Under the pieces are notes generated by a model. It saw only the letters and a list, made by a program, of their open reading frames with translations, had not been told where the DNA came from and ran no database searches. The position numbers and the translations under genes were made by a program. From assembly GCA_964012805.1 (NCBI GenBank), contig CAXGUD010000033.1, positions 1 to 42,011 of the forward strand: a DNA stretch of 42,011 bases, given 5' to 3'. Each line of letters begins with the position of its first letter. Position 1 is the stretch's first letter. Origin of the DNA: an uncultured Bacteriovoracaceae bacterium (GTDB lineage: Bacteria > Bdellovibrionota > Bacteriovoracia > Bacteriovoracales > Bacteriovoracaceae). Positions 740 through 16,726 of the stretch are shown one piece after another.

Positions 740-1918
740 TTAAACAAGACTCATCTCAAAACCTGGAGGAACTTCGCCAACAATGGGCATCGCACTATCC
801 TTTCCAGCTTCTTTTCTTCTTTGAACAAGAAACAAAGACAATAACGTGTCATGTTTTATATAACCTTTTAAATCATCAATAGGAGTTCCTTCAAAAGCAC
901 AGTAGGAAAGGGCATGATAGTCTTTTGATATCGGGAGACCATAAATATACTCGATCATGGAAGTGAACAGCATGGATTTCTGATCTTTTGGTAAGGATCC
1001 TTTAAGCTCCAAGAAATTAAGGTATAAAACCTCAAGCTCACCACCCTCTTTAGGTGACTTTTTAAAAACTTTCTGGAGTTGAAAATATAATTTTAGAAAA
1101 GGCTGAAGCCTATCTATTTTAATTTTTTTTGAAGGAGAAGGAGTCCATAAGAGAGTGAGACCGACTATTTTATTTTTTGAATCTCGTGCCAAAATAAAAT
1201 TTTCTAAAAGGAGGTTATTCCACCTTTCAATTCTAAAGTTCAATTCGTCAAATTTTTCCTCAAAGCAAAACCCGAAGGACCTCTCTCTATTTTGATTCCT
1301 CAAAAATTCTGTTATCGCATCCTTATCCTCCATAGAACCTCTAGAAAATTTGACTCCCTCGATCCTTTTTTTAAAAATATTAGTTAAGTAATGACCAGGG
1401 TGTCGAAGCAAAATATTAACCATCTTATATTGAACAAGTGGAAAGTACTGAAAAGGATTTTTTTTATTATAAACAAGAGCATTCATTGCCTTTTGATTTT
1501 CTCTTAAAATACTCGTATAAAAAAACTCACACCCCCCAAACTCCTCTATCAAGTGGGCATGTTCTACAAGATCACCATAAAATTTTCTCCATATGACGCT
1601 AGCGCGTGGTCCAGGTTGAATTCTTAGATCACCCAAATAGCCAACCCACTTTTTCTCCCCTTTTATAAAACCTGGCCTTAAAACCAATGTTCCTACGCCG
1701 CAAATCCCAGCCTCTTTTTTAAGCCTCACAAGAAAAACAAAAAAAAGTGGCCCACAAAAAGATAAAAATTTAAAGAAATCAGGTTTCCGATCATAACTTA
1801 TCGCTGTTTTAGTGCCTTCCATTGGTAAAGTGGAAAAAAAAGAAAGAATTTCTTTATTGTCTTCTTCTGTGGCCAAGGATACTCTAGGATGCTTTAAAAA
1901 AAGATCATTTAATTTCAT
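740..1918 (-). CDS. GNAT/N-myristoyltransferase-like fold protein, putative acyltransferase
   Basis: RLAT-like start (SLATEED), motif A-like GYLGDLRIQPGPR, FYTSILRENQKAMNAL; size fits a tandem GNAT fold; GGGAGG RBS upstream. Confidence 0.6.
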   Translation of the reverse strand: MKLNDLFLKHPRVSLATEEDNKEILSFFSTLPMEGTKTAISYDRKPDFFKFLSFCGPLFFVFLVRLKKEAGICGVGTLVLRPGFIKGEKKWVGYLGDLRIQPGPRASVIWRKFYGDLVEHAHLIEEFGGCEFFYTSILRENQKAMNALVYNKKNPFQYFPLVQYKMVNILLRHPGHYLTNIFKKRIEGVKFSRGSMEDKDAITEFLRNQNRERSFGFCFEEKFDELNFRIERWNNLLLENFILARDSKNKIVGLTLLWTPSPSKKIKIDRLQPFLKLYFQLQKVFKKSPKEGGELEVLYLNFLELKGSLPKDQKSMLFTSMIEYIYGLPISKDYHALSYCAFEGTPIDDLKGYIKHDTLLSLFLVQRRKEAGKDSAMPIVGEVPPGFEMSLV

Positions 1919-1942
1919 TAAGTTGGCCTCCCGGACCTCTTT

Positions 1943-3016
1943 CTAAATCCAAAAGGAGATTTCTTTTTTACCCTCGTAACTCATTAACTTAGAATCTCCC
2001 TTAACCCCATAATGACGAAGCCTTTCAATTTCTTTATGAACCTCATCAGCTTCCGTGGAACGGAAAGTTGTCCTAAAATCAGACCTTAAACAATCTCCCT
2101 GATTTTTCATAATAACTGTATCCTGCTCAATCACTTTTCTTGTATAAAAAGAAATAATTGGTTTAAAAAGCATTCCAAAAAGAGGGATCTTATAGGCAAT
2201 ATAAGTGTAAACCCGACTTTTTAAAGTACTTACAGGAGATATCTGGGAGTTAATGATAAAACCATTTTTTGAACCAAAATTATAATCAACTCTAGTCAAA
2301 TTAGGCATAATAAATTGATCTGTATGAGTCATAGGATGTCCACCTGGGTTTAAAAGCATCTTGGCACCCCAGCTAAACTCATCTTCCTCTTGAAAATATG
2401 TAACCGTTACAGCACCATTTTTAGTTTCAACAACTGTAGGAACTTTCTTTGGTACGGCTTTTTCATCTCTAAACCAGCCTCTATGGACAAAAATAGTATG
2501 GGGGACATCAACAAAGTTTTCGGCAAGATTTGTGACTTCATTTTCAAAATCAGTAATCATAAAATAGCTAATCCAATCGGGGTTTAAAGCCTCTGGAAAC
2601 CTCCAGGGAGGTGTAGCAGGACATGGAACATCAGTATTATTATCACTCGGGCCCATCCAAACCCAAATGGCACCATCTTGTTCTACGCATGGAAATGATT
2701 TCAACTTTAAATTTTGGGAAGGCTTACTTTCTGGTCCCTCAGAGGGAACACAACTTACCTGCCCCGTATGATCGTACAGCCAGCCATGGTAGGGGCATAC
2801 TAACTCACCTTTAAAGACCTCACCCTTTGATAAGAATGCATGCCTATGAAGACATCTATCGTTAAGACAAGAGACCTTGCCATCATTATTTCTAAAAAGA
2901 ACGAGGGCCGTATCATATAAGGTCCTCTGTATAGGTTTTTTACCAACTTCCCTGCTTAAAGCAGCTATATACCAATTTTTTAAGAGCAGGCCATCCCTTT
3001 CCGTCAAAGATTTCAT
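1943..3016 (-). CDS. Rieske non-heme iron oxygenase alpha subunit (VanA/KshA/PaO-like)
   Basis: Rieske ligands CLH...CPYHGW; mononuclear Fe motif ENFVDVPHTIFVH; C-terminal VIEQD. Confidence 0.92.
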   Translation of the reverse strand: MKSLTERDGLLLKNWYIAALSREVGKKPIQRTLYDTALVLFRNNDGKVSCLNDRCLHRHAFLSKGEVFKGELVCPYHGWLYDHTGQVSCVPSEGPESKPSQNLKLKSFPCVEQDGAIWVWMGPSDNNTDVPCPATPPWRFPEALNPDWISYFMITDFENEVTNLAENFVDVPHTIFVHRGWFRDEKAVPKKVPTVVETKNGAVTVTYFQEEDEFSWGAKMLLNPGGHPMTHTDQFIMPNLTRVDYNFGSKNGFIINSQISPVSTLKSRVYTYIAYKIPLFGMLFKPIISFYTRKVIEQDTVIMKNQGDCLRSDFRTTFRSTEADEVHKEIERLRHYGVKGDSKLMSYEGKKEISFWI

Positions 3017-3028
3017 TGAGCTAACCCT

Positions 3029-4618
3029 TTAAAGGTTGTTAACTTTTGTCAAAAGATCAATCTTTATATCCCCTTCGACCATTCCGGATTTTTTTTTCAG
3101 GTCTAAATAATAATCTGTAGCAGCTGGGAAAACTTTGACCCTCAGATGACCTAATTGGTTCAGCTCTCGAGCTAGTTTGTAATGAAAATGGTTCAGTAAG
3201 GCTTCTTCACCTCTTTCCTCCAAACTTTTTATTTCATCCTTTTCTAACTCCTCTCCTTGAAATAGTGCAAGGTAAAAAGGTCTCTCTTGACCATTTTGAA
3301 CCCCCAAAAGAGAAACAGGCTTTTTCTTATCAACACCTAGAGACTCGAGTAGATTCCTGGCCACCTCCTCACCCATTTTTTCACCAACCATGTCCAGTCC
3401 CTCAACCCGTCCCTGGAAAACCAAAGATAAAGGTGATGAGACACCCTTTTCAACCCTCAATTCGTCTTTCAAATGATACCTTAAAAGTCCATTTCCTGCG
3501 CTTATCAAAGGCGAAACCCTCATTCCCACCTCAAGCTCCCATGCAGGAATGACTTTTCCCGAATCTAGAGAAAGAAATTCATAAAAGTGACTACGATATG
3601 CAAGTGTATAATCCCCGCGAAAAGGGATTGTCACAACTCCTTCTGTTGCGAAAAGTCCCTTCCCCTGAATATAGGTGCGTGGGAAAAGATCTTGCAGCTT
3701 TTTTGCATAAACTGAAGAAGTCCCTGTGTCCCAACAACTAATAAGCGATAAACGTGGCCAAAGCTTCAATAAATCTTCTGAATTAAGCTTGTCCTTAAAG
3801 CTCTTCAAAAGAAAAGCAGACTCTTTATCTTTTATCGGCTTAACCGACTCCAGATCAGAACTGAACTCTTCCCAAGAACCCTTTTCAAGCATTGAAATAA
3901 TCAATTCCCGATTGGACATCATAAACTCAATAAGTTCGAGAAAAAATGTAGGCCCCCAAATAAAAATAAAGGTTAAATTCCTAGCAGTAACCAAATAAAC
4001 GCATGTAGCCAATCTGGACGCTTCCACTGTGTTTGCCAAAGTCACAGAAGGTGGAACACACAAACATTTTCCGATGAGCCAACGATGGAGAGTAGGAAAA
4101 TAAGAAAGGTCATCATTGGTCCGCCCTTTTCCCCTCATATTAGTTGGCAACCAAGAAAGTGACCAATAATGATCTCCTTTACCAATCTCAGGAAAATTCT
4201 GAAAAAGGTCAAAAAGCCATGGGAAAATAGCACTTTTAAACTCATCCATCATAGATTGAGTATAAGGAATCCATTTTTCTTTATGAGAGCTCCCGCTTGT
4301 AGGCTGATAAAGGAAAGGCTTTTCTGCAAAAACACGCTCACCACTTTTTTCCCTCTCAATGAAATCTAGCCAATCATTGTATTGACTTGGCCCAAACGCC
4401 TTGACGAAAAAAGAGTAGCCTACTTGACCCTTAGAGTTAAATTTTCCTGCGAACTCTGTTTGTTTTAGTCCGTCACACAGTTTATTTAATTTTTTTTCTT
4501 GGACTTTTTTAAGGCGCTTAAAATTGCTTCGAAAAAGAAAGTAAGAGGGAAAAATGGCCAACTTCAAGAGCGGCACAATAAAAAACCTCAAAAAAGCTTG
4601 CCGGAAAAATCGTTTCAT
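3029..4618 (-). CDS. GH3 family (acyl acid-amido synthetase-like) protein
   Basis: PTSGSS..KWIPYT P-loop, GKGLFATEG (YxxSEG-like), HFYEF, GLLRYHLKD (GLxRYxxGD-like), FQGR...DMVGEKM. Confidence 0.85.
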   Translation of the reverse strand: MKRFFRQAFLRFFIVPLLKLAIFPSYFLFRSNFKRLKKVQEKKLNKLCDGLKQTEFAGKFNSKGQVGYSFFVKAFGPSQYNDWLDFIEREKSGERVFAEKPFLYQPTSGSSHKEKWIPYTQSMMDEFKSAIFPWLFDLFQNFPEIGKGDHYWSLSWLPTNMRGKGRTNDDLSYFPTLHRWLIGKCLCVPPSVTLANTVEASRLATCVYLVTARNLTFIFIWGPTFFLELIEFMMSNRELIISMLEKGSWEEFSSDLESVKPIKDKESAFLLKSFKDKLNSEDLLKLWPRLSLISCWDTGTSSVYAKKLQDLFPRTYIQGKGLFATEGVVTIPFRGDYTLAYRSHFYEFLSLDSGKVIPAWELEVGMRVSPLISAGNGLLRYHLKDELRVEKGVSSPLSLVFQGRVEGLDMVGEKMGEEVARNLLESLGVDKKKPVSLLGVQNGQERPFYLALFQGEELEKDEIKSLEERGEEALLNHFHYKLARELNQLGHLRVKVFPAATDYYLDLKKKSGMVEGDIKIDLLTKVNNL

Positions 4619-5891: not shown

Positions 5892-6224
5892 TTGAAGATA
5901 AGTATTGAGGTTACCGAAAACAGAAATATCTTTATCGTTGAAGGAGAGGTAGATTCGTTTTCAATTTCTCATTTTATCCAAGAGTTAGAGCTTCTTGAAA
6001 AAATAAGCGGCCAAAAAATTGTTATCGACCTCTCCAATATGAAATCAATAAATTGGCGCGGGCTATTAATTCTTTCAAGGAAAATTTTAGAAGCGAAAGT
6101 TAGGGGTGATGAATTTACTCTGGTCTGCAAAGACCAAGAAATCAAGGAAACTCTAACGCTTTTTACTCATCCCATGCAACTCTCTTTCTTCCCAACGTTG
6201 GAGGACCTTCTTGTATCACTTTAA
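5892..6224 (+). CDS. STAS domain (anti-sigma antagonist-like) protein
   Basis: VEGEVD, KIVIDLSNMKSINWRGLLIL, FFPTLEDLL follow the SpoIIAA/RsbV pattern; overlaps the next gene. Confidence 0.8.
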   Translation: MKISIEVTENRNIFIVEGEVDSFSISHFIQELELLEKISGQKIVIDLSNMKSINWRGLLILSRKILEAKVRGDEFTLVCKDQEIKETLTLFTHPMQLSFFPTLEDLLVSL

Positions 6225-7647
6225 TTTATTAAAAAAAATTATAAATTATTTCATTGCTTTTATTTTTGTAAAAGTTCTAATATTAAGTAATCATAATTGC
6301 CTGGCTTCAGATTCTAAAAAAACCAATAAATTAAAAAGAGTTCCATCATATAGCTTTAAATTCTTTCACGATCAGCTTTTACTGACAAATGATGAGCTGA
6401 AAATGAAGAAAAGAGACCAGATTTTGGCCGAAGAAAACCTCACCGTTTCAAAGTCTGGTCATTATCCCAAATTGGATTTAAAAGTTGGTGTCAACGGGGG
6501 CAGTGAACAAGAAGCCAGTTCATCCAGTGTAGATCCATCCGGAGGTGCTGGTAAAATGGGTCTTTCCGGAGGCTCAGAGGGTACTTCCAACTACAAGGTA
6601 AATTCTGATTCAATATCCGGAAGCTTCGGTCTTACTTATAATATTTTTTCAAGATTTGCGACACAAAATTCTGTTTTGAATGCACGAAATGGAGTCAATC
6701 AAAAGTTATTAGAAAGAGATATATTATTAGATCGAAAAAAAAAGGAACTAATCCACATTCTTCTTGAAATGCAGGCCTTAATAAAGGTAAAAAAAGTTTT
6801 ACTGAGAGCAGAGAATTTATTAGAACGCCTGGCCTTAAAAAGTAGAAATAAAACAAGAAAGCTTTTTTTTGGATCGAGCAGGGGTCTTAAAATTGATAAA
6901 AAATACAAAGAAATCCTTTTCCAAAAAGCAAAAGTTACAGAATATATTCATACAGGCCATTTGGCCCTTAGAAACTTAATCCCTCACTACAAGCAAAATT
7001 GGCTAAATGGCCTAAGAACTTTATCAATTACCTACAAACTCCCAAGTTTTGATTATGCCTCGAAAAAGTATTTAAAAAGGTCAAAAAAATCTAAGAACCT
7101 TTCCTTGGATATTCAAAATTACAAGAATATCCATAATACAACCACATGGGAAAGAGCTTGGATTCCCCTGGCCTTTTTATCTGCAAGTCAGACTACAACA
7201 CAGTCATTAAAGACAAAGGAAGTTTCTAATGGCTGGAGCGCTAGCCTAGTTTTCCAGTTCAATTTATTTGATGGTTTCTATTCGAGCGCAAGAAGATCAC
7301 AAGCCTTTAATATGTATAAAATAAGCAAAATAAAAAAAAGGGATCAACTTTCTAAAGGTATTGTTCTTTTAAGAAAAGATTATGCCCAGATAAAAACATC
7401 GTTACAAAAGAAAATTTTCATCCAATCTATTATAAGAGAAAAGAGATTTAAAATAAAAAATTTAAAAAGAATACGCGAAAGAGGTGTCTCTACTAAAACT
7501 GAAGAAAGTTTTATGCTACTTGAGTTAGCCAAAAAAGAATTGGATAAAAGAGAGGCCCAGAAAGATTATGAAATAGCACTTTTAAATATAGCTACCAATA
7601 TAGATGAATTAAATAAGGTAAAAATAAATGAATCAACAACCCCATAG
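6211..7647 (+). CDS. TolC family outer-membrane efflux protein
   Basis: Signal-like N-terminus, HYPKLDL, SFGLTYNIF, WSASLVFQFNLFDG, RGVSTKTE, long helical segments; adjacent to adaptor and RND genes. Confidence 0.8.
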   Translation: MYHFNLLKKIINYFIAFIFVKVLILSNHNCLASDSKKTNKLKRVPSYSFKFFHDQLLLTNDELKMKKRDQILAEENLTVSKSGHYPKLDLKVGVNGGSEQEASSSSVDPSGGAGKMGLSGGSEGTSNYKVNSDSISGSFGLTYNIFSRFATQNSVLNARNGVNQKLLERDILLDRKKKELIHILLEMQALIKVKKVLLRAENLLERLALKSRNKTRKLFFGSSRGLKIDKKYKEILFQKAKVTEYIHTGHLALRNLIPHYKQNWLNGLRTLSITYKLPSFDYASKKYLKRSKKSKNLSLDIQNYKNIHNTTTWERAWIPLAFLSASQTTTQSLKTKEVSNGWSASLVFQFNLFDGFYSSARRSQAFNMYKISKIKKRDQLSKGIVLLRKDYAQIKTSLQKKIFIQSIIREKRFKIKNLKRIRERGVSTKTEESFMLLELAKKELDKREAQKDYEIALLNIATNIDELNKVKINESTTP

Positions 7648-8329
7648 ATCATTCAAATCAATATTATTTTTAATGTCTTTTTTCTTTATGACAATCCTAT
7701 TGTTTTCTAACAAAGTAAAAGCAGAATCACTGAGAGAGTTGATACCATCTTATGGAGTTATAAAACCAAAATTTGTTTCCACACAGGTCGCCATAGGAAA
7801 CGGCATAGTCCACAAAATTAGGTATAAACTAGGTGATAAAGTAAACCGGGGAAAAATTCTCATCAGCATCATTGAAAGGGAAACTATAAGAAATTACAGA
7901 AATACACTTAAAGGTACTGTTGCAAAAATTCATGTCACCCCAGGAGCAGCAATAAGTGCAGGTATGCCACTTGTTACGATTGTGAATTCTGATAAGAAAT
8001 ATATGGAAATCGCTTTTTCTCCAGACGAATCAAATAAAATATCCAGAGGTTTGAGTGTTTTGTCTCAAAATAAAAATGTCAAGATTGGAACAATTAACAG
8101 ACTCTCTCCAATTGTTGATCCAGACACAGGAACTGTCCTTTCATTTGTAGATCTTAAATCCTTTGGAAGACCTTATCGAATTGGTGAAGTCCTTCCTATT
8201 TTCATTGAGGGTAAAATAAAAAAATGTAAAAAGGTTATAGGTTTAAAAGAGTTAGGACTTTATACAAATGGTTACAAAGTCAATTTCATTGCAGGGGACA
8301 AAGTTTGCTTGGAAGGCAAAGCACCCTAA
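7628..8329 (+). CDS. RND periplasmic adaptor (MFP) lacking the alpha-helical hairpin
   Basis: Lipoyl half-motifs GIVHKIRYKLGDKVNRGKILISI and GTVAKIHVTPGAAISAGMPLVTI; beta-barrel motif GTINRLSPIVDPDTGTV; only 233 aa. Confidence 0.8.
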   Translation: MNQQPHRSFKSILFLMSFFFMTILLFSNKVKAESLRELIPSYGVIKPKFVSTQVAIGNGIVHKIRYKLGDKVNRGKILISIIERETIRNYRNTLKGTVAKIHVTPGAAISAGMPLVTIVNSDKKYMEIAFSPDESNKISRGLSVLSQNKNVKIGTINRLSPIVDPDTGTVLSFVDLKSFGRPYRIGEVLPIFIEGKIKKCKKVIGLKELGLYTNGYKVNFIAGDKVCLEGKAP

Positions 8330-8360: not shown

Positions 8361-11318
8361 ATGGTTCAAGCATTTATTAAAAAAGGGGTTTTTACTATTT
8401 GTTTAAACCTCCTCATTCTTTTAATAGGCTATTTTACAATACCTAAGCTCTCTAACGAATTTATTCCATTAGTTGAAGTTCCTGCAGTTGCTGTAGTGAT
8501 TCCCGCTCCCACCATGAGTGAAGAAAATATAAAATATAATATTGTTTATCCTCTTGAAAAAGCTCTTCTTCGAACTGGAGAGCTGAAATCAATTGAAGCG
8601 GACATCGAAGAAGGGAAAGCTGTTTTTAAGCTTTTTTATAAGTGGGACTTCCTACCAGAAGAGTGCCTAAGAAAAGCAAGACAAACTGTTGAAAACTTAT
8701 CTCTTCCTGACGGTGTACTGGACCCTATCTTTGTTTTGTATAAACCCAGTAATAACCCAATTCATAGAGTCGTCTTTTATGGTCTTAATATAGAATCACT
8801 CTCTTCACATGCCCTAAAGATAAAAAGTAAAGTTGAAAGAATACCTGGCATCTCAGAGGTCTTGATCGCAGGACAGTACCTTGGAAAAACCTATGTAAAT
8901 ATAAAAAATAAAAAGCTTTCTCAATACCAAGTTAGCTCTCAAAACATTATTGACGAGGCTTATAATACATGGAAACTTAGAAAGTTTTATAAAGGATTTC
9001 CCCTCAACCACACTCTTTCTTTGCCTATAAAAAAACCAGAAGACATGAAACTCCTCCCCATATTAAACTATAAAAATGATCACATATATTTGAAGTGGAT
9101 AGGAGACATCACCAAACCACCAGGAAAGCCCCAAGTTATTTATGGAAGGGAAAAACCCGCCGTTGTTTTAGAAATTATAAAATCGGCAGGTGCCGATACA
9201 ATTTCAATTATAAATAAGTCTAAAAAGATAATTGAAAATTATAAAAATCCATCTATCCAAACTGAAGAAATATATAACGAAGCAATTAAAATTAAGGAAA
9301 GTCAAAATGGAGTATTTACAAACTTCTTCATCGGAGTTGTTTTAAATTCTTTAATTCTTATGATATTTCTAGGCTCCACAATTGGGGTATTGGTTGCTTC
9401 TGTAGTTTTCCCGACGGCACTTCTCGGTACATTTTTTACAATGGATCAATTAAGCATTTCAATAAACCTTTTTAGCCTGAATGGCTTTTCTTTAGCTGTT
9501 GGAATGATAACTGATGCCTCCACAGTTGTTTTAGAGTCTATAACTCAAAGAATAAATAGAAAAGAGCCTCTGTTTATGGCGTGCTTGAAAGGGGTTAAGG
9601 ATGTCAGTCTAGGGGTTTTGGCTTCTACTCTAACAACAGCAGGAGTTTTGTTACCAATAGCCTTTCAAAAAAATGTCTCTAGCAAACTTTTTTCAGACCT
9701 TAGTCTTACTGTTGTTTCCACCCAGATTTTCTGCCTTATCGCCGTTTTTAGTCTGGTACCATGGCTTTGTTTCAAAATGTTAGGAAAAAACACCAAGGCT
9801 CCTTCTTTAATCTTTTACCTTTTTAAAAAATCGGACACTCTGGTAAAAAGTATGATCAATCTGGCAAAAACCACTCAAAGCTTTTGCCGAAAAAAAGTAT
9901 TCTTTCGCCTTGTTATTCCTGGTATAGTTATCTTCCTTAGTTTAGGTTCTGTTGTTTTTTTACCAGATATGGAGTTTCTACCGCAGGTATCATCCCGAGT
10001 TTATTCATTAAAATATCCAATTAATTCATCTCGACAAAGCGTGGAAGGAATTGAAAAAAGAGATTTGATGGCCAGTACATTAAAAGACTGGAAAGAAGTC
10101 GTTTGGTCGGTTTCATCGTTTAGCAAAAACACAGTAGATATACTCTTTTCACTAAAAACCTCCAAATCTATTGAACAAATTAAAGATAAATTTAAAGGAA
10201 AAAACTTAATTTTTGAGAAAATAAATATATTGCCAGTCGGACCAGCTCCATCCGGAGAAGCCTATGGATATGATGGTCTCTACTTTATAAGCCAAAACTT
10301 ACCAGATGATAAGATTTCTAAACTCATCCAAAGTTTTTGCAATAGTAAAACCGTCAGTACTTGCTTAGGGCCTGAGTTTACCAAAAGTTATAACTTTCAT
10401 CTAAGCCCTGATCATTTAACAACCTACAGAATGGGCATATCAACATATCATGGTCTCAGCCAATTTTTTATTCCCTTACAGGAAATTGACTTATCATCAA
10501 TAGCCGACTTTGAATTTAAAAACCCATCAATTATGAAGATATCCTTTGAAAATTCTTTATTAGACTTACCAATTATCAACTCTAAAGGCGAACGAAACGT
10601 TATAGGAGATCTCTATAACCATAAAGTTGAGAAGTATGACACCATATTAAAAAGAAAGAACGGGGATGACTTCTTTCCACTATTTTTTAAACTCAAAGGA
10701 TCAACAATTGGATTAGCCGATAGTAGCATGAATTCAATTAGGCAAGGATTAGGCATAAAAGAGAAGAAAATTATTGGTATGGGAACTCTTGAAACAATGA
10801 ATGAAAGCTTTGGAGGACTCATAACGGCCCTTACAATTTCGGCATTTATTGTTTTTATAATACTGGTAATACAATTTAATTCTATCAGGCAAGCTTCCGT
10901 CATTATGGGTACAATCCCACTTACTCTTGGTGGTGCTATTGGTGGACTCATTGTAATGGGTGAAACAGTAAATGCAAGCGTTTTAGTTGGATTCATTCTT
11001 CTTATTGGAATAGTCGTCAATAATGGGATCTTTTTAGTCGAGGCAACCAACCAAAAGCTTTTTTCTGGAGGCAGTAAGGTCGATGCCATCGATTGGGCAG
11101 TATCGAGTAGAACAAGACCTATTTTAATGACCTCATTTTCAACAATCTTGGGAATGTTGCCTACTTTAATTATTGGTGGAGAAGGCTCAGAATTATATAG
11201 AGGTATGGCCATTGTAAATGTTTTTGGGATGATAACAGGAACATTTCTTTCCATCGTTGTCACGCCTATTTTTATAGAATATTTAGGTTTACCGAAGAAC
11301 ATTAGTAAGGGACGATAA
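8361..11318 (+). CDS. RND efflux transporter permease (AcrB/AcrD/AcrF family)
   Basis: 985 aa with two large periplasmic loops; TM4 AVGMITDASTVVLESI, TM10 GIVVNNGIFLVE, TM11 RTRPILMTS. Confidence 0.93.
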   Translation: MVQAFIKKGVFTICLNLLILLIGYFTIPKLSNEFIPLVEVPAVAVVIPAPTMSEENIKYNIVYPLEKALLRTGELKSIEADIEEGKAVFKLFYKWDFLPEECLRKARQTVENLSLPDGVLDPIFVLYKPSNNPIHRVVFYGLNIESLSSHALKIKSKVERIPGISEVLIAGQYLGKTYVNIKNKKLSQYQVSSQNIIDEAYNTWKLRKFYKGFPLNHTLSLPIKKPEDMKLLPILNYKNDHIYLKWIGDITKPPGKPQVIYGREKPAVVLEIIKSAGADTISIINKSKKIIENYKNPSIQTEEIYNEAIKIKESQNGVFTNFFIGVVLNSLILMIFLGSTIGVLVASVVFPTALLGTFFTMDQLSISINLFSLNGFSLAVGMITDASTVVLESITQRINRKEPLFMACLKGVKDVSLGVLASTLTTAGVLLPIAFQKNVSSKLFSDLSLTVVSTQIFCLIAVFSLVPWLCFKMLGKNTKAPSLIFYLFKKSDTLVKSMINLAKTTQSFCRKKVFFRLVIPGIVIFLSLGSVVFLPDMEFLPQVSSRVYSLKYPINSSRQSVEGIEKRDLMASTLKDWKEVVWSVSSFSKNTVDILFSLKTSKSIEQIKDKFKGKNLIFEKINILPVGPAPSGEAYGYDGLYFISQNLPDDKISKLIQSFCNSKTVSTCLGPEFTKSYNFHLSPDHLTTYRMGISTYHGLSQFFIPLQEIDLSSIADFEFKNPSIMKISFENSLLDLPIINSKGERNVIGDLYNHKVEKYDTILKRKNGDDFFPLFFKLKGSTIGLADSSMNSIRQGLGIKEKKIIGMGTLETMNESFGGLITALTISAFIVFIILVIQFNSIRQASVIMGTIPLTLGGAIGGLIVMGETVNASVLVGFILLIGIVVNNGIFLVEATNQKLFSGGSKVDAIDWAVSSRTRPILMTSFSTILGMLPTLIIGGEGSELYRGMAIVNVFGMITGTFLSIVVTPIFIEYLGLPKNISKGR

Positions 11319-11320
11319 AT

Positions 11321-11611
11321 ATGAAAGCCGTCATGCTGCTATTTGACTCCGAACTCGTCGAAGAGGCACTCTTAATGATAAGGGTGTCCAACATCCAGAA
11401 CTATACACACTTTACAGGACTTCATGGATCCTCTAAGGCCGGTAAAAAAGAAGGTTCTGCTGCTTGGCCAGGAACCAATGAAATTATTATGATTCTTTTA
11501 GATGATATTAGTCTTAAAAAGTTAAAAAAAGTTATTGGTGATTTTAAAATAAAGCACCCAGGAAGACCTCTTCTCTTTTTCAATTGGCCTTTGAGTGAGG
11601 TAGTTATCTAG
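11321..11611 (+). CDS. PII-like transporter-associated small protein (resembles the PG0541 family)
   Basis: MKAVMLLF...IQNYTHFTGLHG....GKKEGSAAWPGTNEII matches the PII-like pattern seen next to RND genes; 96 aa. Confidence 0.7.
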   Translation: MKAVMLLFDSELVEEALLMIRVSNIQNYTHFTGLHGSSKAGKKEGSAAWPGTNEIIMILLDDISLKKLKKVIGDFKIKHPGRPLLFFNWPLSEVVI

Positions 11612-14275
11612 ATGTTAAAGTTTCTTCAAAAAGTTGCAGAATATAGAAGGATTGTTTTAGTTTTTCTTTTTGTGCCCATAGTTGCTGTTTTTTTAAACTT
11701 TTCAAAGGGTCTTAGTTTTTTTCCTGAAGATAGTTTTATAAGATTTAAAATAGAGTTTTATGTTCCCAGTAAGATAAGCTCTGAAATCGAAAGAAAAGTA
11801 ACGACTACCGCCGAAAAAACTTTCAACGGCTTATCTAACTTAATTTCAATTGAATCCTTAACAAGACATGAAAGATCCGAAATAAACCTTATATTTGATA
11901 GGCTAAATGATCCAAACAAAATTCTTCTTTTTATTCAGGAGAAACTTGATCGATTAAAAATAACACTACCTGGAGATGTCAAACAGATTAAAGTCACCCA
12001 CTTAAAGCCACTTCCTCCACCAGATTTTAAAATAAATACAAATACTGGTTTTGATTTAACAAAATTCCAAAATTATATAAAAAATTTAGGTGCATCTATA
12101 AAAAGAATTGAACCAGAATTAGATGAAGACATTAATTGGAAAATACAACTTAATCCAAAAAAGCTTTTAAGCTACAACATTTCTATAAATCAGATATGGC
12201 ACTCTTTAAAAATAAATGGCTTCGCCTCCCGCTTAGGTTCAAAAGATGACTTAAGTTATTTTGTTGAATCAAACTTCCGCTCTCTTCTTCAATTAAAATC
12301 CACCATTATCGGTTCAAAATCCAATACTCCTATCAAACTTGTTGATATTGCAAGCATTAAACTTATCCCCCCTTCCGCACCTAGAATCATAAAGATATGG
12401 TTTAACAATGAAAGCACTAGTCTTAATAAAGTTAGTAATGAAATAAAAAAGTTATTCCCGTACGTTAAAGTTGAAAGATCGAGAACAAAGCTGTGGATCT
12501 CATTACTAAAAAAGCCCTTACTCTTTTTTAGTATTTTTACAATAATTTCTTTTCTTGTATTTTATTTTGTTTTCAAGGACATTAAAGCAGCAGGAAGTTC
12601 TCTTATTTTTAATTTTGGATTTTTTATTCATTACCTCTTCTGGTGCTTTATATTTAAAAATGGCATTACAATACTTGATTTTTATTCACTAATTTTAGGT
12701 CTTATTTTTGGCTCTTTCTTATGGCTGGTGCTTCTTAGTAAAATTAGGAATTCCTTTTATCACAAAAATAAAACTGGATTAAAAATAACCGTTCAGCAAT
12801 CAATACTTTTTGCTCTTTCAGAACTTATACCAACTTTTTTGATTTTATTTACTTTATTTTATCTATTTTCGCTCCCAACACTTTCTAATACCATCAGTCT
12901 ACCCTCTTCAAAAATTTTAAATCATTTTTTTTCAATTGCGATTCCAATCATATTCTATTTTTTAACTATTTTATCAGTTTTCAGTCCTTTAAATTGGGCA
13001 ACGAAACAAGGCCCCGAAAAAAAGCCCACCAGGCTCTTTTCAAGAAATGTATTTATTCCTCCACTCATTGTTCTTTTTATTCCAATTAGTATTTATTTTT
13101 GGCCTTTAAAGCCTTTAGGTATGAAGGACTTTAAAAGTGAAGAGAAGGTTTTTATTTCAAACCTTTCCCTATACAGAGGTCACCAAAATGCTCTTACATA
13201 TCAAAGCAAGCCTTCAGACACACCAAAAAATTACAAGTTAGTTCCTGAAAAGTTTTTGGAAAAAGAATGGGTAAATCAATGGGAAGTTACACCTAATGGA
13301 CTTCGGTCACTTCCAAATTTAGACATTTCTAGTTTTAAATTGGCGATGGAGGATATCCAACAGGAAAAAAGACTCTCCTTTTTTAACTATATAGATGATC
13401 AAATTGAAACATCAATTCCTATAAAACTTAATCAATTAATATTAGATGAAAGAAATTTTTCTCACCTTCTTATTGGCAGCAGGACCCCTGGAGAAAAGCC
13501 AAGTCACCTGGGGCATATTGCAAAGAAAACTATTGTTACAGTCCCAAAACTTATATTTCATGAGCAAATTAATCGAGTTAATCAATTTTACTTTAAGGAT
13601 TTAAATAAAAACCAATCTAACTTTTTAGAGACCCCAAAAAATGATGAAACGTTTAAAGAAACATCCCTCACTAGGTTCTGGAGAAAACACCATAAAAACT
13701 TCATCAAAGACCACCTAACTTCATTTATATTCATCTTTACATTTCTTTCACTTTATATGAATTCGTTCTATAGAGGATGGATTATAACAGCTATTTGTTT
13801 GGCACAATCTGGGTTATCAAGTGGAATACTTTATTTACTAAATGATGTTATACCACTTGATACGATGTGGCTTGATAATCTGCCGCAATGGCTTTCAGTG
13901 GCCGTCATTTTGCTTCTCACTAGGCCTATGGACTTAGAAAGAGTTAGAGGACTAGATATTGAAGTTGCCCTAAAGAAGCTTAAAAACTTCTACGCTCGCG
14001 CTATTTTAGCCGCATTATTTCTCTTTTCTTCAGGCCCCATTATTCTAGGCCTTCTATCCTCTTTTAATAACGATCTTATTCCACTATCCAGCCTATTTAC
14101 CCAGTCATCTCTTTTTATTGGAGCCCTAACACTTATTTTAGGCCTTATAAGCTACCGCTTTCTTTTTTTCAGTTTTTACATAAGTAGCGAGAAATCTATT
14201 GATAAAATGAGCCTTTTCCTTTTAAAAACCTTTTATAAAATAAAAAATAGTCGGAAAAATAAGGCAAAAGCCTAA
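11612..14275 (+). CDS. Highly diverged RND-like membrane protein (second subunit)
   Basis: PN1-like SEIERKVTTTAEKTFNGLSNLISIES...SEINLIF, KITLPGDV, IQLNPKKLLSYNISINQI, PIKLVDIASI; 1+5/1+5-type hydrophobic layout; proton-relay motifs missing. Confidence 0.72.
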   Translation: MLKFLQKVAEYRRIVLVFLFVPIVAVFLNFSKGLSFFPEDSFIRFKIEFYVPSKISSEIERKVTTTAEKTFNGLSNLISIESLTRHERSEINLIFDRLNDPNKILLFIQEKLDRLKITLPGDVKQIKVTHLKPLPPPDFKINTNTGFDLTKFQNYIKNLGASIKRIEPELDEDINWKIQLNPKKLLSYNISINQIWHSLKINGFASRLGSKDDLSYFVESNFRSLLQLKSTIIGSKSNTPIKLVDIASIKLIPPSAPRIIKIWFNNESTSLNKVSNEIKKLFPYVKVERSRTKLWISLLKKPLLFFSIFTIISFLVFYFVFKDIKAAGSSLIFNFGFFIHYLFWCFIFKNGITILDFYSLILGLIFGSFLWLVLLSKIRNSFYHKNKTGLKITVQQSILFALSELIPTFLILFTLFYLFSLPTLSNTISLPSSKILNHFFSIAIPIIFYFLTILSVFSPLNWATKQGPEKKPTRLFSRNVFIPPLIVLFIPISIYFWPLKPLGMKDFKSEEKVFISNLSLYRGHQNALTYQSKPSDTPKNYKLVPEKFLEKEWVNQWEVTPNGLRSLPNLDISSFKLAMEDIQQEKRLSFFNYIDDQIETSIPIKLNQLILDERNFSHLLIGSRTPGEKPSHLGHIAKKTIVTVPKLIFHEQINRVNQFYFKDLNKNQSNFLETPKNDETFKETSLTRFWRKHHKNFIKDHLTSFIFIFTFLSLYMNSFYRGWIITAICLAQSGLSSGILYLLNDVIPLDTMWLDNLPQWLSVAVILLLTRPMDLERVRGLDIEVALKKLKNFYARAILAALFLFSSGPIILGLLSSFNNDLIPLSSLFTQSSLFIGALTLILGLISYRFLFFSFYISSEKSIDKMSLFLLKTFYKIKNSRKNKAKA

Positions 14276-15261
14276 ATTGATTCTTGCTTTTTACTATTAT
14301 TACTCTTTTTACTATTTGATAAAAAAGCCAAAACCTCTCGGATTGTTTTATTGTCCCTTAAAACTTTGTTATGGCCTAGACCGTGTGAAATTTTCAAAAG
14401 GCTTTTTGGTATCACTTTGCTTAACTTTTTGGAATTCTCAACTTTTGAAGCACGGTCATCTTCATCGTGAAAAATTAAAACGTGTCCCTTCACTTCCGGG
14501 CCAATAATACAAGGGTTAAAATCTTTGAAGCTTCTCTTATATTTTGATTCTAAACCGCTTATTGTTGCTTCAAAAAAATCCTCTCTGACTCCTTCTTGCT
14601 TTGCCCACTGCTTAAAATCGTCTTCAACATCAAAGTTGGGTGCAAAAAGTACAATCTTTTTTATTTTTAAAGAGTTTGCTAATGAAAGAGAAAAACAACA
14701 ACCAAATGAATGACCTACAAAAGCGTAAATTTCTCCAACCACATTCACCACGCTTTCCGCAGCCTCAAGAATTTCCAAAGCATTGGTCATAAACCCTGGC
14801 GACTGCCCATGAGAAGGAGCATCAAAGGCCACAACTGAAAAACCTTTCTTCAAGAGGCTTGGTATAAATTGACAGAATTGAGTACCACGACCTGCCCAAC
14901 CATGTGTAAAAAAGATACAAGGTCCCTTGCCCCACTTCATACCAATCACTTCTTTTTGAGACTTAGGAAGAATCACTTTGAAAGTTTGGGCCCTTTTTTG
15001 CCAATAAACTTCAGCCTCAGCAGGTCTATAATGCTTTGGCCTAAAAAAAATTTTCTCAGCAACCTCCTCCACTTGAGTGGGGAAATAATCCCAGGTTCGA
15101 TTTAACGTATTAACAACAGCTTTTTTTCCAAAAGTTTGGATCTCATTGGGCATCAAGCCTAGAAGGTCATTTTTAATGAATTTTATTTTGGCTTTGGCCT
15201 CTGCTATCTTTGATTCCATAAAAAACCCATATATTTTAATTATACATTCCATCAAGCTCAA
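14272..15261 (-). CDS. Alpha/beta fold hydrolase
   Basis: HGWAG oxyanion motif, FDAPSHG, GHSFG nucleophile, HDEDD, GLGH; true start may be 15252 or 15219. Confidence 0.9.
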   Translation of the reverse strand: MSLMECIIKIYGFFMESKIAEAKAKIKFIKNDLLGLMPNEIQTFGKKAVVNTLNRTWDYFPTQVEEVAEKIFFRPKHYRPAEAEVYWQKRAQTFKVILPKSQKEVIGMKWGKGPCIFFTHGWAGRGTQFCQFIPSLLKKGFSVVAFDAPSHGQSPGFMTNALEILEAAESVVNVVGEIYAFVGHSFGCCFSLSLANSLKIKKIVLFAPNFDVEDDFKQWAKQEGVREDFFEATISGLESKYKRSFKDFNPCIIGPEVKGHVLIFHDEDDRASKVENSKKLSKVIPKSLLKISHGLGHNKVLRDNKTIREVLAFLSNSKKSNNSKKQESI

Positions 15262-15263
15262 AC

Positions 15264-15851
15264 CTAGCTGCTTCTAACAACAAGATCGCTGAAGGATTTC
15301 CTTAACTTTAATTTTGCTTTTTCCTGGTTCATAAGCCGAGCAAAAATATGAAACCCGATCATATAAGAATAGAGTTCATAGACAAACTGGTCAGGACTCA
15401 AATTTTTATGAAATTGCTTTTCATCAATAGCAATAGAAACAGCTTTTTTAAAGCCCTCAAGCATTTCCTTTTGCAAAGACTTTAAATGGTCTCTTAAAGA
15501 ACCCGGGCGGTCGTCAAACTCAATAATCGCAGTTATGATAGGACACCCACCCTGATGCTTATCAGTAGACCAGGTAATCCAATTCTCTACAATGGCCTCA
15601 AGTCTTGGCACTCCCCTTGGTTTTTTTGTCGCCGGCTTAATTACCGTCTGAACAAAGTTCAAAGACGCAAGATCTAGGACCATTTTTTGAAGTGACTCTT
15701 TCGATTTAAAGTGACCAAAAAGCCCACTTTTACTCATTCCTACCACCTTCGCCAACTCACCGATACTTAAATTTACTAATCCCCACCTTGAGCTAAGGTC
15801 TAATGCTACCTCTAATATTTTTTCTTTCGTTTCGGATATAGCTTTTGTCAT
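15264..15851 (-). CDS. TetR/AcrR family transcriptional regulator
   Basis: HTH LSIGELAKVVGMSKSGLFGHFKSKE; C-terminal GGCP...EFDDRPG. Confidence 0.95.
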   Translation of the reverse strand: MTKAISETKEKILEVALDLSSRWGLVNLSIGELAKVVGMSKSGLFGHFKSKESLQKMVLDLASLNFVQTVIKPATKKPRGVPRLEAIVENWITWSTDKHQGGCPIITAIIEFDDRPGSLRDHLKSLQKEMLEGFKKAVSIAIDEKQFHKNLSPDQFVYELYSYMIGFHIFARLMNQEKAKLKLRKSFSDLVVRSS

Positions 15852-15857
15852 AGCCCT

Positions 15858-15866
15858 ATTGTAACA
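15858..15866 (-). promoter_or_regulatory. Extended -10 promoter of the tetR-hydrolase operon, probably leaderless
   Basis: Minus strand reads TGT-TACAAT-AGGGCT-ATG. Confidence 0.55.
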
Positions 15867-15872
15867 CGACTC

Positions 15873-15890
15873 AGCACGACCGTTCGTATT
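15873..15890. promoter_or_regulatory. Probable TetR operator
   Basis: Imperfect palindrome agcACGAcCGtTCGTatt, 22 nt upstream of the tetR start and overlapping the -35 region. Confidence 0.6.
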
Positions 15891-15968
15891 TCTTAGTGAG
15901 TATATATTATTAGGTACTTAGCCAAATTTAAGGGGATTAAATTTAAAAAAAAAATTTCAAAAGAAGGG

Positions 15969-15997
15969 TTTCAAACCAGGTTTAAACATCTGTTTAG
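15969..15997. promoter_or_regulatory. Tandem inverted repeats, probable operator of the second TetR
   Basis: tttcAAAC-cag-GTTTaaa overlapping tAAACA-tc-TGTTTa, upstream of 16112. Confidence 0.45.
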
Positions 15998-16111
15998 AAT
16001 CTGTCTAATTTCGCTTGCTTTACTCGAGAAAAGACTAATTTTAAAATTCATGTATGGTCTTGTAATTTGACCTCCCGAAAAAACCTCCGCAAGCTTTAAT
16101 AAGGTAAAAAA

Positions 16112-16726
16112 ATGTCTGATGCTAATAAAACCAAAGAAAAGATACTTGTTGTTACAGAGGAGCTCATCCTTAATAATGGAATTGAAAAAGTCTCCATTAG
16201 AAATATTGCCAAACAAGCTTCAGTCAATATTGCCTCTATTAACTATTACTTTTCAAGTAAAAGAGACCTTCTAACTGAAATTCTTAAACGAAAGCTTGAA
16301 ACTCTAAAAGAAGACCTTCTAAGCTCTCTTATTCACTCTAGAAAGTTTGAAACTTCCGAACCTATAGACTTTGTTTCTCTCATTTTTGATGCCTTTTTTA
16401 AGGAAAAAGATACATATTTTGGTCATTACAAAATCATTTTAGACCCCGATGTTCAAAACTCTCAAAACCTTGAAGAGTGTGAAAAAGAACTTTATTTCCC
16501 GATAGGACAAGAGCTGCTTTTAAAAAACCTAAACCATTTTTTTCCAAACGCACAACCATCTGAAATAAAAAGAGTTTCCTTCCATATTTGGGGTATTATC
16601 CACCATTCGCTTTTCCTTATGTCTCAGCCTCTCTACCAAACCAATGGAAATTCAGATGATTTTTCATTAGAGTTTGTGAAAACTTCACTAAGAAAGACCT
16701 CAATGGCCATAATTAAAGAACTTTAG
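16112..16726 (+). CDS. TetR/AcrR family transcriptional regulator
   Basis: HTH VSIRNIAKQASVNIASINYYFSSKRDL. Confidence 0.95.
   Translation: MSDANKTKEKILVVTEELILNNGIEKVSIRNIAKQASVNIASINYYFSSKRDLLTEILKRKLETLKEDLLSSLIHSRKFETSEPIDFVSLIFDAFFKEKDTYFGHYKIILDPDVQNSQNLEECEKELYFPIGQELLLKNLNHFFPNAQPSEIKRVSFHIWGIIHHSLFLMSQPLYQTNGNSDDFSLEFVKTSLRKTSMAIIKEL

Follow-up and report, generated by a model that had tools for sequence, protein, structure and literature searches.

A relay-less RND-fold subunit conserved beside a relay-bearing permease in a Bacteriovoracaceae operon: a probable passive partner in a mixed pump

Why would a bacterium keep, at the end of an efflux-type operon that already encodes a resistance-nodulation-division (RND) permease, a second RND gene whose product lacks the proton relay? 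The question is raised by contig CAXGUD010000033.1 (assembly GCA_964012805.1) of an uncultured Bacteriovoracaceae bacterium, analyzed over positions 1 to 42,011 of the forward strand, hereafter the window. Positions 11612..14275 (+) encode RND2, a relay-less subunit of RND fold, of 887 aa and with 12 predicted membrane helices, as recognized from its open reading frame (ORF), Pfam, a structural model and fold searches. An earlier note, made from the sequence alone, had read this gene as an uninterrupted 887-aa frame encoding a non-energised scaffold or a substrate-selecting partner. Coordinates and translation confirm the frame, which starts with ATG and has zero internal stops, in DNA of ~31% GC. 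RND2 closes a compact series of genes: STAS, TolC, adaptor, RND1, a 96-aa protein and RND2. By identity in RND2, its closest named relatives are in bins assigned to Halobacteriovoraceae (82%), Bacteriovoracales (76%) and Bacteriovoracaceae (33%). Our results indicate that RND2 probably has a passive, structural role as a protomer of a trimer shared with RND1, and that RND1 likely uses protons to drive export through the adaptor and TolC encoded with it.

Profile and structure searches agree that RND2 is an RND protein. Its model, built from 35 family sequences (pLDDT 85.2, pTM 0.83), has the architecture of the superfamily, i.e., two repeats totaling 12 helices, in which transmembrane helices (TM) 1 and 7 are each followed by a large periplasmic loop. 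The top Foldseek matches are AcrD, AcrB and AdeJ (E ~1e-32, TM-score 0.70-0.72). The AcrB, AdeB and AcrD structures are matched with Z ~29-30 across ~810-830 residues, the match to AdeB (7b8q) having a Z of 29.8 over 811 residues, at a root-mean-square deviation of 4.8, within model range 1-863. The Pfam profile ACR_tran (PF00873) recognizes residues 25-274 only (52.4 bits vs. a cut-off of 28, E 2.6e-14). Beyond residue 274, the RND is recognized by fold search, by multiple alignment and by a language-model search, in which residues 480-887 match ACR_tran clusters at 0.92. The RND fold claimed for RND2 is thus supported by Pfam for the N-terminal part and by structure over the full length.

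The proton relay, by contrast with the fold, is lost. In a joint alignment of the RND2 family with RND1 and with AcrB, MdtB, MdtC and CusA of E. coli, the AcrB residues D407, D408, E414, K940, N941, R971 and T978 correspond to F369, L370, S376, A764, V765, Y794 and A801 of RND2. The first three lie in TM4 (residues 351-380; 12662..12751, +) and the four others in the stretch from TM10 to the start of TM11 (13880..14014, +). A second alignment, including gappy Leptospira rows, opens a TM4 gap at 407/408, still without Asp, and agrees at the five other positions. RND2 thus has neither the TM4 Asp, nor the K/N/E940-N941 of TM10, nor the R971 and T978 of TM11 that characterize proton-driven permeases of the HAE-1, NFE and HME types. 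Among RND2 orthologues, an acid is present in the helix core of TM4 in 1/33, of TM5 in 1/33, of TM10 in 1/34 and of TM11 in 0/34; no Asp is found in the TM4 core of any of the 33, and one has a single Glu elsewhere. Of 12 orthologues, none has K, N or E at 940; N941 and R971 are likewise absent from all 12, and T978 is present in only one. For comparison, D407 and R971 are each kept in 217/222 other RNDs of at least 900 aa, a sample that is biased by the searches made; it includes metagenome-scan matches, among those listed mostly unrelated RNDs, and is used as background only. One protein, P0218 from a Candidatus Coatesbacteria, is an otherwise ordinary RND with Thr-Asn at D407/D408 and R971 retained.

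Two details of the earlier note can be refined. For a TM4 string that corresponds to residues 352-378, it had reported no Asp at the DD positions and no Glu, which is correct; an Asp, D356, is nevertheless present elsewhere in this helix. D356 is Asp in 31/33 orthologues and lies at the periplasmic helix start, outside the relay, where its T-x-x-D context suggests a helix-capping position. The note had also seen the RPILMT motif reduced to RAILAA. This string does exist (residues 796-801) and its last Ala, A801, is at the T978 position, but its Arg occupies the position of AcrB R973 rather than R971 and is present in only 6/34 orthologues. As the note had proposed, RND2 goes further than MdtC, in which D401, D402, K919, R950 and T957 are all retained.

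TM3 apart, the conserved charges of RND2 either mark the start of a helix (D356, D750) or belong to the cytoplasmic face (R379, E404, R721, R771, D774, E776, R777, R779, D782), sidedness being deduced from RND topology. RND2 could alternatively conduct ions by a new path, made of H340, D356 and position 334, or draw on a different energy source, by itself or together with RND1. H340 and D356 are indeed conserved (28/32 and 31/33, respectively), and 14/32 orthologues have an acid in the TM3 core. However, position 334 is an Asn here, D356 and D750 stand at helix starts, and the cores of TM4, TM10 and TM11 are hydrophobic and variable, so that we hold this alternative to be very unlikely.

What RND2 has kept is informative about what it might do. 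Subdomain boundaries in RND2 and RND1 are our reading of the secondary-structure (DSSP) strings of the models, not of their coordinates. Compared to the RND1 model, the RND2 model has retained PN1 and PN2 as well as the two subdomains of the funnel, DN and DC, and differs mainly in the C-terminal periplasmic loop, of ~218 vs. ~307 residues, i.e., ~89 shorter (with TM7 ends taken from the models and N717/N840 of TM8 as anchor). From TM7 to the C-terminal funnel, RND2 has ~50 residues vs. ~140 in RND1, and after this funnel ~32 vs. ~48. The N-terminal loop (264 vs. 285 residues) is only slightly shorter; both periplasmic halves had been described as shortened, which is the case, but unequally. 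The TM6-TM7 linker is also reduced, to 18 residues vs. 44. PC1 and PC2 of RND2 are thus likely reduced to remnants in the model, being mostly deleted: one remnant corresponds to PC1 and the first half of PC2 (residues 500-549; 13109..13258, +; model DSSP and alignment), a region of ~140 residues in RND1, and the other to the second half of PC2 (residues 653-684; 13568..13663, +; models and alignment). The predicted protein therefore departs from the four porter subdomains of a proton-driven permease.

PN1 is the most conserved region of RND2, with 18/100 columns at at least 90%, and its central helix (residues 101-118, including LFIQEKLDRLK; 11912..11965, +), which would face the trimer axis by homology to AcrB, is among the most conserved parts of the protein. 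G209, in the funnel hairpin, is invariant. The PC remnants and PN2 are the least conserved periplasmic parts (0.34-0.36). Membrane segments score 0.39-0.55 in RND2 vs. 0.68-0.78 in RND1, TM1 and TM7 aside, in two sets that differ in diversity.

These features bear on the choice between the two roles initially considered. In AcrB, PC1 and PC2 flank the access pocket, and the deep pocket is situated between PN2 and PC1 (PMC8277102). With PC1 and PC2 collapsed in the model, both pockets would be lost in RND2. It is therefore quite unlikely that RND2 is a substrate-selecting protomer, comparable to MdtC and energised by adjoining RND1 protomers, even though there is a precedent in the B2C trimer, where MdtB energises and MdtC binds (PMC4338810). 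PN1 and PN2 are retained, R522 in a PC remnant is invariant, and relay-less subunits of Leptospira, described below, are full length (960-1047 aa) and could select substrate; however, PC1 and PC2 are mostly deleted in the RND2 model, and conservation is lowest, among its periplasmic parts, in their remnants and in PN2; RND1, on the other hand, has a complete porter domain. As the parts that build the trimer are kept while the pocket subdomains are mostly gone, the term scaffold suits RND2 better than a substrate-selecting, MdtC-like role. Of the two roles, the non-energised scaffold is thus favored, and the substrate-selecting one is not.

The RND2 gene is intact, and purifying selection acts on it. 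When 1.84 billion representatives are searched with a profile, a distinct RND2 family of 29 proteins is retrieved at E <1e-30, followed by a sharp drop, below which ordinary RNDs match mostly in their N-terminal part (the RND of locus L046 is also an ordinary one). Orthologue length, ~857-919 aa, is held down to ~25% identity. The ratio of nonsynonymous to synonymous substitution rates (dN/dS) is 0.085, 0.083 and 0.057 in three pairs from within the genus, as compared to 0.04-0.05 in RND1 and 0.09-0.11 in TolC, all these ratios being rough because dS is near saturation. RND1 and RND2 are found in the same 10/237 genomes of the family and in the same 6/390 genomes of a second class (the one holding a "Bdellovibrionales" record); these are counts and not a statistical test, the genomes being related and many of them incomplete. 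In 13 of these 16 genomes the RND2 frame is complete and uninterrupted, and in the other 3 it breaks at contig ends. The gene order STAS, TolC, adaptor, RND1, PG0541-family gene and RND2 is identical wherever contigs allow, while the genes flanking the operon are not conserved across loci.

The possibility that RND2 is a decaying duplicate without function is refuted by these selection and conservation data. It could draw on the very long stem branch of the family and on genome G721, where a first piece of RND2 ends with a TAA ten bases from the contig edge and a second piece is open to its own contig edge. Yet dN/dS stays below 0.1, frames are whole except at contig ends, and lengths are kept. 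The argument of the earlier note that an intact frame speaks against decay is thereby strengthened.

If RND2 carries no engine, the partner would have to. RND1 (985 aa; 8361..11318, +; Pfam, model and alignment) has D385, E392, R917 and T924 at the relay positions, D385 and E392 being kept in 38/38 orthologues, R917 in 37/38 and T924 in 36/38. It has Ala at the D408 position and Asn at that of K940; since the D-A pair at 407/408 is also that of CusA, and Asn at 940 is the commonest background state (163/222), RND1 is a plausible engine. Its porter domain is full in the model, with conserved PC1 positions (12/99 columns at at least 90%). Two Cys of the PC2 region, 660 and 668, are invariant in 38/38 orthologues and likely form a periplasmic disulfide. 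Between RND1 and RND2, BLASTP gives no significant match; a profile-profile comparison relates them with a probability of 95%, in a poor C-terminal register.

The operon would offer both RNDs a single exit. RND2 is encoded, as proton-driven permeases are, with an adaptor and a TolC-family gene; it always accompanies RND1 and shares with it one adaptor and one TolC gene. The periplasmic adaptor (233 aa; 7628..8329, +; Pfam and alignment) has no alpha-hairpin and a shortened C-terminal part; the hairpin is missing in 10/10 orthologues aligned, and a PDB sequence search shows the lipoyl halves to be colinear with plain biotinyl domains. Its N-terminus is signal-peptide-like and its short C-terminal part contains two conserved Cys. 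The TolC-family outer-membrane factor (478 aa; 6211..7647, +; domain scan) has orthologues with a Ser/Gly-rich, low-complexity insert at residues ~100-130, unlike the proteins of the sister family described below. At the operon head is a STAS-domain, anti-sigma-antagonist-like protein (5892..6224, +; domain scan), conserved upstream of TolC.

In the mechanism that we propose, RND2 would complete a trimer with RND1, in a 2:1 or 1:2 proportion, and would contribute funnel and adaptor-docking surface, while conducting no protons and binding no cargo in the usual pockets. In that case, the cycle of the RND1 protomers would have to dispense with the three-step rotation known from AcrB. The cargo might be, as a guess from the family, a small hydrophobic or lipid-like molecule. 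Several points weigh against this mechanism. The contact between RND1 and RND2 is itself inferred. One inactivated AcrB protomer abolishes the activity of the whole pump (PMC8277102), which argues against a permanently dead RND2 protomer, unless the pump cycles differently here. MdtB can form an active homotrimer (10.1101/2025.04.25.650598), so that tandem RND genes need not imply an obligate heterotrimer. Polar TM3 residues, which may be buried, are conserved in RND2, namely H340 and, in 13/32 orthologues, an Asp at 334 (Asn in this RND2). Finally, phylogenetic trees do not place RND2, and approximately unbiased (AU) tests reject none of three placements.

One alternative, compatible with a mixed trimer, is that RND2 is a regulatory or coupling subunit, whose cytoplasmic face would take a signal, for instance from a PII-like or STAS protein, and gate or remodel the RND1 pump. 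The PII-like candidate is the 96-aa, PG0541-family transporter-associated protein encoded between the two RND genes (11321..11611, +), whose stop codon abuts the RND2 start codon. It is above the cut-off of NF045581 (48.2 bits vs. 45), as are two orthologues (58.9 and 50.5 bits), and RND-adjacent, as expected of this family, with a weak profile match to the PII entry 5d4n (E 0.08). Its gene is found between both RND genes in 15/15 loci where visible, and the STAS gene precedes TolC in 12/13 loci reaching that far; the operon of the sister family additionally carries apparent anti-sigma factor and PP2C phosphatase genes. Furthermore, the cytoplasmic TM10-TM11 motif of RND2, R771-D774-E776-R777-R779-G780-D782, is near-invariant though orthologues are only ~25% identical: D774, R777 and R779 are present in 34/34 orthologues, E776 in 32 and D782 in 30, and outside the motif R721 is present in 34/34 and E404 in 32/33. 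However, the RxRGxD loop resembles that of ordinary RNDs and may thus have a structural role. Moreover, some RNDs with an intact relay, and with no relay-less partner seen, are followed by a PG0541 gene (L100, L101 and L110, as well as the PG0538-PG0541 table of PMC12094164), so that these genes do not need RND2. A predicted complex between a part of RND2 (residues 290-887) and the PII-like protein, in three copies, scores 0.00, which counts neither for nor against binding. Altogether, we consider a regulatory role unlikely, and a passive structural protomer remains our preferred reading of RND2.

How could such a pair arise? A sister family of the same phylum (f7) has the PG0541 gene in 9/9 genomes. 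In the f7 loci read, the operon is longer, with a full adaptor and two RNDs, RND_A and RND_B, around the PG0541 gene. Both RNDs keep D407, E414, R/K971 and T978 (5 rows each, one RND_B row being from a neighboring family, f16). This operon (L147:2608-13404, L148, L160-L163) begins with apparent anti-sigma, STAS and phosphatase genes, followed by TolC, adaptor, RND_A, PG0541 and RND_B; the anti-sigma and PP2C phosphatase labels are our reading of the sequences and not the result of a family scan. Like CusA, RND_A carries an acidic residue, Asp or Glu, where AcrB has K940. In genome G058, the TolC gene (L149:7738-9134) is split into two overlapping ORFs, by a frameshift or an assembly error.

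RND1 groups with RND_A, with a starred support of 97 in a quick tree and of 100/100 in a later tree including Leptospira rows, and lies outside MdtB/C in both. None of the trees places RND2, whose stem represents 4.6 changes per site in the quick tree; the AU p-values are 0.66 with RND_B, 0.55 with RND1 and 0.63 with MdtBC. Rows were left out of these analyses, 13/94 for an N-terminal tree, 42/94 for the joint alignment and quick tree, and 24 of the remaining 52 for the AU tests; the later tree contains 35 of the 94 rows and 8 Leptospira rows. A 2-residue deletion is common to RND1 and RND_A and is not found in RND2. Because of its position after the PG0541 gene and of the absence of this deletion, RND2 is likely, though not proven, to descend from RND_B. 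We suggest that two intact RND genes flanked the PG0541 gene in an ancestral operon, a state still seen in the sister family, and that this operon was streamlined: the first RND would have kept its engine, the second lost relay and pockets, and the adaptor lost its hairpin.

A second relay-less case comes from the background. Four of its proteins have unalignable membrane halves, two of them being named Leptospira permeases. In both Leptospira plasmid loci examined (L169:5796-11952 and L170:5801-11967; proteins P0180, P0190, P0220 and P0270), an adaptor and an RND with D407 are followed by a second RND without recognizable TM4, TM10 and TM11 motifs. In the first subunit D407 is present, but Val stands in for R971 and Asn for T978. 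The pairs are preceded by Ig-like, lipoprotein, TPR or hypothetical genes, with TolC in L169. The second subunits form their own clade (100/100), which is neither joined to RND2 nor excluded from it, and a homologue search with a Leptospira protein at a strict cut-off returned only the query itself. These clusters have been noted as having "two acrB genes" (PMC4956267), relay loss being unmentioned in the text consulted. Like the RND1/RND2 operon, they have an adaptor and a D407 RND before the relay-less one; they differ from it by second subunits of near full length (960-1047 aa), with a membrane domain even more eroded than that of RND2, and by having no PG0541 neighbor in the 2 loci scanned. 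More tentatively, bacteria might possess RND trimers that are mixed by necessity and in which one protomer is a permanently dead pseudo-transporter. Deprived of both proton path and cargo pocket, this protomer would do no more than complete, and perhaps regulate, the assembly, and the pump could not run by three-step functional rotation. Such trimers could have arisen at least twice, in predatory-lineage bacteria and in Leptospira, the former combining them with an adaptor devoid of hairpin and with a PII-like protein.

Elsewhere in the window, an alpha/beta hydrolase gene converging on the RND2 end and two divergent TetR genes (14272-16726) are also present in genome G001, but adjoin the operon in none of the remaining loci read. 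A single 163-base contig, from one RNA library, overlaps the final 160 bases of RND2 and shows nothing about transcription. On the minus strand (740-4618), a GH3-family acyl-adenylate synthetase-like gene, a Rieske oxygenase gene and a 392-aa ORF of unknown function form one run, possibly a small-molecule pathway. The same genome contains a second tandem RND pair (G000:C18:67866-74238), in which both members keep the TM4 Asp.

Whether RND protomers cycle in a concerted or an independent manner is given as an open question in a 2024 review (passage on CmeB, PMC10924465). A natural, selected pump with a protomer lacking relay and pockets would be a ready-made test of concerted cycling, for which the sister lineage, with both RNDs intact, provides the before-state for comparison. 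The RND1/RND2 operon is also a compact system for learning the function of the PG0541 family. It further illustrates that the automatic annotation "efflux RND permease" hides relay-less subunits, as it does in Leptospira.

Compared to known systems, RND2 shares with the AcrB, AdeB and AcrD homotrimers the overall fold, the 12 helices and the PN1, PN2, DN and DC subdomains. It differs from them by an identity of only 10-13%, by the absence of D407, D408, K940, R971 and T978, by the reduction of PC1/PC2 and of the TM6-TM7 cytoplasmic helix, and by an extra C-terminal helix. The PG0538-PG0541 operon of Porphyromonas gingivalis has the same succession of TolC, adaptor, RND and PG0541-family protein (PMC12094164), but one RND is listed there, whereas here there are a second, relay-less RND, a leading STAS gene and a hairpin-less adaptor. 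An adaptor without helical hairpin is also known from Borrelia burgdorferi, BesA (PMC8277102), although BesABC is listed as a three-gene pump, and BesA is absent from the PDB sequence matches of our adaptor. As for a naturally relay-less RND subunit, no description was found in the literature searched, which missed most subscription papers.

MdtBC of E. coli, MuxBC and SmeJK resemble our system most, with two RND genes and one adaptor in one operon and a proposed division of labor in which one subunit is energising (PMC4338810, PMC10872679). The present locus likewise has tandem RND genes, with the PG0541 gene between them, and a common adaptor, but only one of its two subunits keeps the relay. 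MdtC keeps every relay residue and binds substrate, and MdtBC-type partners are ~50% identical; RND2 has no relay and collapsed PC1/PC2, and does not significantly match RND1. All 203 tandem RND pairs of one dataset were traced to the MdtBC duplication (PMC10872679), whereas RND1 groups with RND_A and not with MdtB/C, and hence likely falls outside this duplication; a grouping of RND2 with MdtBC is not rejected. The RND2 system is thus, within the literature searched, a real and previously undescribed variant of two-RND pumps, whose closest working likeness is the MdtBC division of labor.

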